A stretch of DNA of 64,000 bases from Octopus sinensis. Its lineage: Eukaryota. The notes beneath the pieces are model-generated. The model worked only from the letters and a program-made list of their open reading frames with translations, was not told the origin of the DNA and ran no database searches. Positions 38,194 to 38,595 of the stretch are shown in pieces. Each line of letters begins with the position of its first letter. Positions within the stretch are counted from its first letter, which is position 1. The DNA lies in contig NC_043007.1 of the NCBI RefSeq assembly GCF_006345805.1, positions 54,126,001-54,190,000 on the forward strand, written 5' to 3'. The position numbers were made by a program, and so were the translations under genes.

Positions 38194-38595
38194 AATTTTT
38201 ATTTTTTATTTTCACGAAACCGAGTGATTATTTTGCCGAAATAGCTTGTGATAAGTGTGGTGAAAAGGAGCGTAACAGAACAAGGAAAAGAATTAGAAGT
38301 GTAATTTGGTCTTACCTGCAGAGATGAAGCCGGATTTGCCTTGAGCCAACTTGCTAGCGTCTTGTCGTCTTGGCGTCGTTCTCGAGTCTGACTGCCCTGG
38401 TCGATGCCGCACGTGCGTTCTGTCTCTCACTTCCGCTTCCGCCGGCGCATGCGCCCTGCGAGACCTGCAAGACCCACTTCCGCTCCCTCCCTCTCTGTCA
38501 CACTCCCTCATCACCACACCACACATATATATATATATATGTACATATATACATATAAAGACATATATATAAATGTATATAAGTACATATATATC

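Follow-up and report, generated by a model that had tools for sequence, protein, structure and literature searches.

Three LTR retrotransposons lie on the minus strand of the window, by which we mean the whole 64,000-nt stretch of Octopus sinensis DNA that was analyzed (Table 1). The features expected of such elements were all found: paired TG…CA LTRs, a target-site duplication, a polypurine tract, and gag and pol. The boundary between the 5' LTR and the internal region is fixed by the LTR pairs together with 5-bp target-site duplications. In all three elements the 12-mer AGCTATTTCGGC starts at the first base 3' of the 5' LTR, which ends in CA, and these are the only exact matches to it in the window. 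An earlier note on this DNA had described the three copies as invariant, set beside a strongly diverged element 1 LTR and lacking any TGG primer site, and these observations were confirmed: the copies are exact, the LTR of element 1 shares only short 67 to 75% matches with the LTRs of elements 2 and 3, and no TGG site is found in the three elements.

Table 1. Features of the window (positions count from its first base).
Feature	Position	Strand	Remarks
Long inverted-repeat pairs	659-1839, 23762-25887, 32946-33983, 40722-41302		typical of miniature DNA transposons
Tandem array	2356-7100		13-14 units of ~340 bp that are 95-100% alike and vary in their GA tracts; no Rfam match
Helitron helicase-like fragment	15364-16119	-	
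Element 1 target-site duplication ATATG, 3' copy	34259-34263	-	partner of 38524-38528
Element 1 3' LTR	34264-34540	-	LTR pair by window self-comparison
Element 1 palindrome TGATCT…AGATCA, polypurine tract, 2-nt spacer	34541-34562	-	just before 3' LTR; palindrome at 34549-34562
Element 1 pol frame	34577-37564	-	overlaps gag end; protease, RT, DUF7047, RNase H, integrase
Element 1 RNase H	35645-36064	-	single; D-E-D-D catalytic residues; archaeal RNase H1 nearest in predicted fold
Element 1 RT core + DUF7047	36065-36964	-	DUF7047 aligns with foamy-virus RT thumb region and is not a tether
Element 1 gag frame, CCHC zinc knuckles	37438-38205	-	255 aa between stops; first ATG lies ~42 nt past the site
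Element 1 GGGAAAC heptamer	about 37455-37465	-	in gag-pol overlap
Element 1 primer-binding site AGCTATTTCGGC	38235-38246	-	complement of tRNA-Phe(GAA) nt 1-12
Element 1 5' LTR	38247-38523	-	277 bp, TG…CA; 98.6% identity to own 3' LTR (window self-comparison)
Element 1 splice-donor-like GTAAG	38310-38315	-	putative; 69 nt before LTR end
Element 1 target-site duplication ATATG, 5' copy	38524-38528	-	partner of 34259-34263
Element 2, internally deleted copy	41617-43523	-	LTRs 43243-43523 and 41617-41857 (95.9%, window self-comparison); duplication ATATA
Element 2 primer-binding site	43231-43242	-	exact match, identical to that of element 1
Element 2 donor-like GTAAG	43306-43311	-	putative
Broken LINE-like element	45745-51016		zinc knuckle, endonuclease, RT, zf-RVT; inverted repeats of 161 nt (94% alike) on both sides
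Element 3, internal deletion and broken frames	51721-55554	-	LTRs 55237-55554 and 51721-52038 (98.1%, window self-comparison); duplication TATTA
Element 3 primer-binding site	55225-55236	-	exact match, identical to that of element 1
Element 3 donor-like GTAAG	55301-55306	-	putative

Several smaller signals accompany these elements. The donor-like GTAAG, ~70 nt before the LTR end with a pyrimidine tract after it, may suppress early polyadenylation or yield a spliced pol RNA, and the heptamer in the gag-pol overlap is a likely -1 frameshift site. The palindrome TGATCT-N2-4-AGATCA recurs just before the polypurine tract in both host and metagenome elements (L071-L130, L150, L156, L160, and L167), possibly as a hairpin for plus-strand priming or packaging.

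What does the 12-mer pair with? The host tRNA-Phe(GAA) starts with GCCGAAATAGCT (for the 15-mer, 129 genome matches versus 0 for the control; tRNA-Phe called by ARAGORN at 8/10 host loci with the 15-mer), and AGCTATTTCGGC is the exact complement of its nt 1 to 12, as the earlier note had proposed. Within the window, matches with up to 2 mismatches number 5 against 3.3 expected, which is not significant, so the significance of the site comes from its position and from genome counts: CA plus the site has 278 matches in the host genome and the control has 9. Only nt 1 to 12 of the tRNA are matched. Other parts of tRNA-Phe, including the CCA end, have no consistent match in 12 host elements, nor do these elements have complementarity to the anticodon stem-loop region; a bipartite primer site was rejected on the same 12 elements, which lack a second conserved match to tRNA-Phe. 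As for the tRNA genes themselves, the 5' 15-mer of tRNA-Phe recurs in a head-to-tail array with a period of ~200 bp and dozens of units (G000:C15:43562502-43577294), and two host genes (L204 and L206, 1501-1573) combine a tRNA-Phe-like start with a GCA (Cys) anticodon call. Arrays of tRNA-Phe that differ at nt 4 to 6 are absent from the host genome (4 matches, 2 of them called tRNA-Cys).

Conservation in homologues had been set beforehand as a point on which the proposal could fail, and the motif proved to be kept. Host copies were picked by the N terminus of Gag alone and not by the motif (151 matches from 150 scored of 733 candidates), and 90 of them with the N terminus covered, comprising the top 30 and 60 of the other 120 spread down the ranking, with element 1 as one of the 90, were compared at the site. 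It is exact in 64 copies, has one mismatch in 20, two in 3 and three in 2, and is absent from 1; thus, 87/90 copies with Gag identities of 43 to 100% carry it with no more than 2 mismatches. Of the 29 mismatches in host copies, 17 are C>T or G>A changes that fall near the CG, on site positions 9, 10, and 12, a pattern that decay after insertion would produce. The base after the site in the 87 copies is A in 53, C in 14, T in 11, and G in 9, so the conserved stretch extends no further than the base opposite tRNA nt 1. The conserved A read at this 13th position in the earlier note therefore does not hold, and the idea that the site mimics the 3' strand of the acceptor stem, including A73, has to be dropped because base 13 is not conserved. 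Gag starts ~20 to 70 nt downstream of the site in the host copies. As a same-genome control, 12/12 Gypsy elements selected with PF17917 (about three families) have TGG after the LTR, the automatic LTR boundary being a few bases off in two of the 12. One motif-selected host match (L012) was rejected as a member, since it sits in an unrelated repeat.

Metagenome relatives keep the motif as well. Pol alignment led to 72 metagenome loci with Pol identities of 38 to 56%, except for two short matches, and the site and its variants were first seen by a plain best-match search upstream of pol. The pattern CA-AGCTAT-NNN-GGC with up to 1 mismatch, which fixes nine positions by construction but was preceded by the best-match search and had its misses checked separately, occurs in 43/72 loci and in 0/72 of the reverse-strand control. 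Among the 29 pattern-negative loci, 26 have no Gag start, 1 starts inside the site at the start of its contig, and 2 represent one decayed copy; one pattern-positive locus (L200) is followed by integrase-like sequence and not by gag. NNN is CTA in 14 of the positives, TTC in 13, CGC in 9, CCC in 4, and CAC in 3. These three bases, which face tRNA nt 4 to 6, are the only ones that change within the site, and in 34 nonredundant metagenome elements the flanks, including base 13, are free. Pairing with the pre-tRNA leader was ruled out, because neither host nor metagenome elements constrain base 13.

Do the variant triplets follow the tRNA? A survey with the host-tRNA pattern and nt 4 to 6 left open gave 11 viral and 80 of 100 prokaryote-assembly loci, and among the loci listed there are real tRNA-Phe(GAA) genes whose nt 4 to 6 are complementary to TTC, CGC, CTA, and CAC, with none in these 11 and 80 loci matching the CCC variant. 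Over four ways of counting, the probability that variants and tRNAs overlap by chance is about 0.01 to 0.03: with all tRNA-Phe triplets counted, 3/4 variants match (P 0.011 to 0.013), and under a strict host-like (eukaryote-like) filter, 2/4 match (P 0.017 to 0.029). The covariation with the tRNA-Phe 5' end that the earlier note looked for is thus indirect: variation is confined to bases opposite nt 4 to 6 and most variants match real tRNA-Phe genes, but the records with the matching tRNAs contain no such element. The triplet is shared in 8/10 same-assembly pairs versus 90/315 pairs between assemblies (permutation p 0.005, with kinship and mixed hosts as confounders), and one assembly holds both CGC and CAC types. 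On a FastTree tree of 61 rows, from which 14 rows were dropped for short RT-RH coverage, CGC, CAC, and CCC each recur on separate branches, with 11 changes in all. Taken as sequence patterns, these data suggest that the host sets the triplet, kinship and mixed hosts remaining confounders. A CTA-type element (L164) occurs in 22 runs from 15 studies, 21 labeled annelid metagenome and 1 labeled organism A; the searched supplement of one paper held no annelid tRNA-Phe. No tRNA was found at the element loci (0/44), and in 16 records with tRNA-Phe genes the only matches were distant ones to integrase. Some bacterial MAG records (L224-L231, L246-L249, and L255-L256) hold repeated tRNA-Phe genes of eukaryote type, which are probably host DNA in the bins.

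To which lineage do these elements belong? The domain order is PR-RT-RH-IN and not the Copia order with IN before RT, although this is not diagnostic of Gypsy because BEL, Troyka, and retroviruses share it. The best solved matches to the lineage RT are foamy-virus RT (E 5e-10), and Ty3 is not among the 60 matches listed. DUF7047 as a tether was ruled out by its alignment with the foamy-virus RT thumb; with this alignment and RNase H following directly, there is one RNase H only. This RNase H keeps the catalytic residues D14/E50/D74/D133, and its model (pLDDT 91) is closest in fold to the RNase H1 of Halobacterium (Z 17.4, rmsd 2.1, 122 aligned), Sulfolobus (14.9), and LC11 (14.8); the next entry reaches Z 12.8 and Ty3 RT Z 9.0, and Foldseek agrees. 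Searching solved sequences with an RNase H profile turned up no real match. Among 31 lineage RNase H domains, RVT_3 matches 31/31 and RNase_H 27/31, and of the Gypsy-type models, PF17917 matches 1/31 (E 0.01) and PF17919 1/31 (E 0.1); host Gypsy controls score >100 bits on PF17917. Some RT and RNase H motifs may be DIRS-like. The putative fifth active-site position is Ser/Thr in 31/31 domains and never the archaeal-type arginine. An arginine at that position is the aRNH criterion (PMC5348765). The earlier assignment to Gypsy agrees with the domain order but is doubtful because the RNase H is not of Gypsy type; the lineage behaves as an LTR retrotransposon, is not filed here as canonical Gypsy, and is apparently unnamed.

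The lineage is large. At 50% identity, 541 clusters reach E 1e-30, and the named relatives are from Argonauta, Aplysia, Plakobranchus, Oratosquilla, Petrolisthes, Chionoecetes, Trinorchestia, Watersipora, Hydra, Trichinella, and Trichuris, with Sycon more distant, so that the named members, which include a sponge, Hydra, a bryozoan, molluscs, crustaceans, and nematodes, extend the lineage from sponges to arthropods. The primer site itself has been read in host and metagenome elements. No members were found in viral contigs (0/80 pattern loci), an atlas search gave matches that were unnamed or low in shared features, and the lineage motifs are not in five supplement files on the mollusc Gypsy clades MolGy1-16 (PMC6238403), files that may hold no sequences.

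How could a site complementary to the 5' end of a tRNA serve reverse transcription? From its sequence and placement, it is very probable that the tRNA-Phe 5' end would be the minus-strand primer, in the form of a 10- to 12-nt fragment. Gag zinc knuckles would open the acceptor and D stems and let tRNA nt 1 to 12 anneal to the site; the 12-bp duplex of site and tRNA (-18.7 kcal/mol) outweighs the acceptor stem (-8.8). Pairing between the tRNA and the LTR end fails from nt 13 on, so the 3'-OH would have to arise at nt 12 or 10, and the RNase H of the element could free it by cutting the RNA/RNA duplex, as that of Tf1 does. We favor a cut made by the element because of the Tf1 precedent and the unusual RNase H: the Tf1 enzyme reportedly cleaves an RNA duplex, to go by the title of Levin's 1996 paper. 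Sulfolobus-type RNase H1 is reported to cut double-stranded RNA as well. Plus-strand strong-stop synthesis would then run off the physical 5' end of the primer, such that the site would be rewritten from the tRNA in each cycle; such rewriting would explain both the exact stop at tRNA nt 1 and a quick adaptation to the tRNA-Phe of each host. A 2-nt spacer separates the polypurine tract from TG, and should the two ends of the cDNA be symmetrical, the AG that opens the site would be the corresponding spacer, in which case the primer in actual use may measure 10 nt instead of 12. The model as a whole, in which the 5' tRNA-Phe fragment primes and the element RNase H makes the cut, has in our judgment an even chance of being right. 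Its fullest form, an archaeal-like RNase H acting as a tRNA nuclease across a metazoan-wide lineage outside canonical Gypsy, cutting tRNA-Phe after nt 10 to 12, making its own primer, and having its site rewritten every cycle as a fourth way of priming, is put forward tentatively, at somewhat short of even confidence.

The strongest rival concerns the maker of the fragment. Fragments of the ~14- to 16-nt size class, cut in the D loop, exist among 5' tRNA pieces, and a host or particle exonuclease could shorten one of them to nt 12, in which case the element RNase H would be incidental. All the sequence evidence on primer identity applies equally to this origin, trimming would also end the match at nt 12, where LTR pairing stops, and Copia-type elements use host-cut half tRNAs (PMC6317226). 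Such a source, however, would have to supply one fragment steadily to the germ line from sponges to arthropods, and it leaves the non-Gypsy RNase H unexplained; we regard it as credible but unlikely. Intact tRNA-Phe could alternatively prime from an internal 2'-OH at nt 10 to 12, giving branched RNA-DNA as in retrons with no cut at all. Both the missing pairing past nt 12 and the stop precisely at nt 1 fit this, but the RT is of the LTR/retroviral kind, with foamy-virus RT as its best solved match, and no LTR element is known to prime from an internal 2'-OH; we regard this as improbable.

Two further rivals take tRNA-Phe out of the role of primer. First, the primer might be another RNA that carries this sequence at its 3' end, or a spliced transcript of the element itself, and the match to tRNA-Phe a coincidence. 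The covariation with host tRNA is indirect, 65/71 host copies have a donor-like motif in the last 110 nt of the LTR (a count that has no shuffle control), and in elements 2 and 3 this motif is immediately preceded by a GCCGA that could pair with some of the site. Against this, the motif occurs in only 12/36 metagenome elements, the longest complement to the site in the LTR is 4 to 8 nt, no better than in shuffled sequence (71 host and 36 metagenome elements), and a variation confined to nt 4 to 6 that matches real tRNA-Phe genes is hard to obtain by chance, leaving only a small probability. Second, the site might bind tRNA-Phe or its 5' fragments for packaging, dimerization, translation control, or silencing, with priming elsewhere. 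That tRNA fragments are able to guide silencing (PMC7472051) and that Gag starts so close downstream would suit such a role, but the site occupies precisely the position at which primer binding has to occur for the LTR end to be defined, and there is neither a TGG site nor, in the 12 host elements, a conserved complement to other parts of tRNA-Phe, the CCA end included; this is very improbable. Self-priming of the Tf1 type, which the earlier note had argued against, is not supported, as LTR complements above shuffles are absent from all 107 elements.

If a 5'-terminal 10- to 12-mer is indeed the primer, it would be a fourth primer type of LTR elements; three are recognized (PMC6317226), namely, the mature tRNA 3' end, the half tRNA cut in the anticodon, and the self-primer. 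It would also give 5' tRNA fragments a possible role in replication, predict tRNA cutting by a retroelement RNase H, and place the site out of reach of the 3'-fragment silencing described for ERVs (PMC7472051). A pipeline restricted to tRNA 3' ends, such as the one in PMC13524379, would score the whole lineage as having no primer site. In the openly accessible literature we found no description of a primer site complementary to the first 10 to 12 nt of a tRNA, although Repbase, subscription journals, and the Troyka supplements may contain one; the motif itself occurs in three papers with titles on tRNA or RNA methylation.

Among known systems, the closest parallels include copia, Ty5, Osser, Bryco, Bianca, and the fungal Helenus partners, whose half-tRNA priming likewise uses a 5' piece of a host tRNA as primer, with no CCA and no TGG site. 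The Copia primers, however, are cut in the anticodon stem from tRNA-iMet, Ile, Tyr, or Asp, whereas here nt 1 to 12 of tRNA-Phe are matched and the order is PR-RT-RH-IN. In PMC6317226 and PMC10886601, half-tRNA priming is reported only in Copia lineages, and the further anticodon-loop cases in the latter are all linked to Copia. Tf1/Sushi elements likewise use a very short primer, have a site that directly adjoins the LTR, and are probably also similar in that RNase H cuts an RNA duplex; Tf1 primes from the 5' terminus of the element RNA itself (PMC4600332), in contrast to the LTR here, which has no complement, and to a site that matches a host tRNA. Ty3/Gypsy (Metaviridae) and BEL/Pao have the same TG…CA LTRs, 5-bp duplication, polypurine tract, and gag plus PR-RT-RH-IN, but they pair with the 3' CCA end of a tRNA, as the TGG of 12/12 host controls illustrates, and not with the 5' end.

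With respect to RNase H, Tat, Chronos, Archon, and Odin/Loki/retroviruses likewise have an enzyme that is cellular-like and not Gypsy-like. According to PMC5348765 and PMC9040795, the old RNase H or tether is kept beside the new one, with an archaeal RNase H added in Tat/Chronos/Archon and a dual one in Odin/Loki/retroviruses; the terms tRNA and PBS are absent from both main texts. The present lineage differs from Tat, Chronos, Archon, Odin, and Loki in its single RNase H directly after the RT thumb and without the active-site arginine. Troyka, another divergent metazoan LTR lineage long filed under Gypsy, ends in CG…CG, makes duplications of 3 bp, and has a CX2CX8-10HX4C knuckle (PMC12440569), compared to TG…CA, 5 bp, and CX2CX4HX4C in these elements. 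The site is real and conserved over deep evolutionary distance, and it is best read as a further form of tRNA-fragment priming in an apparently unnamed lineage.
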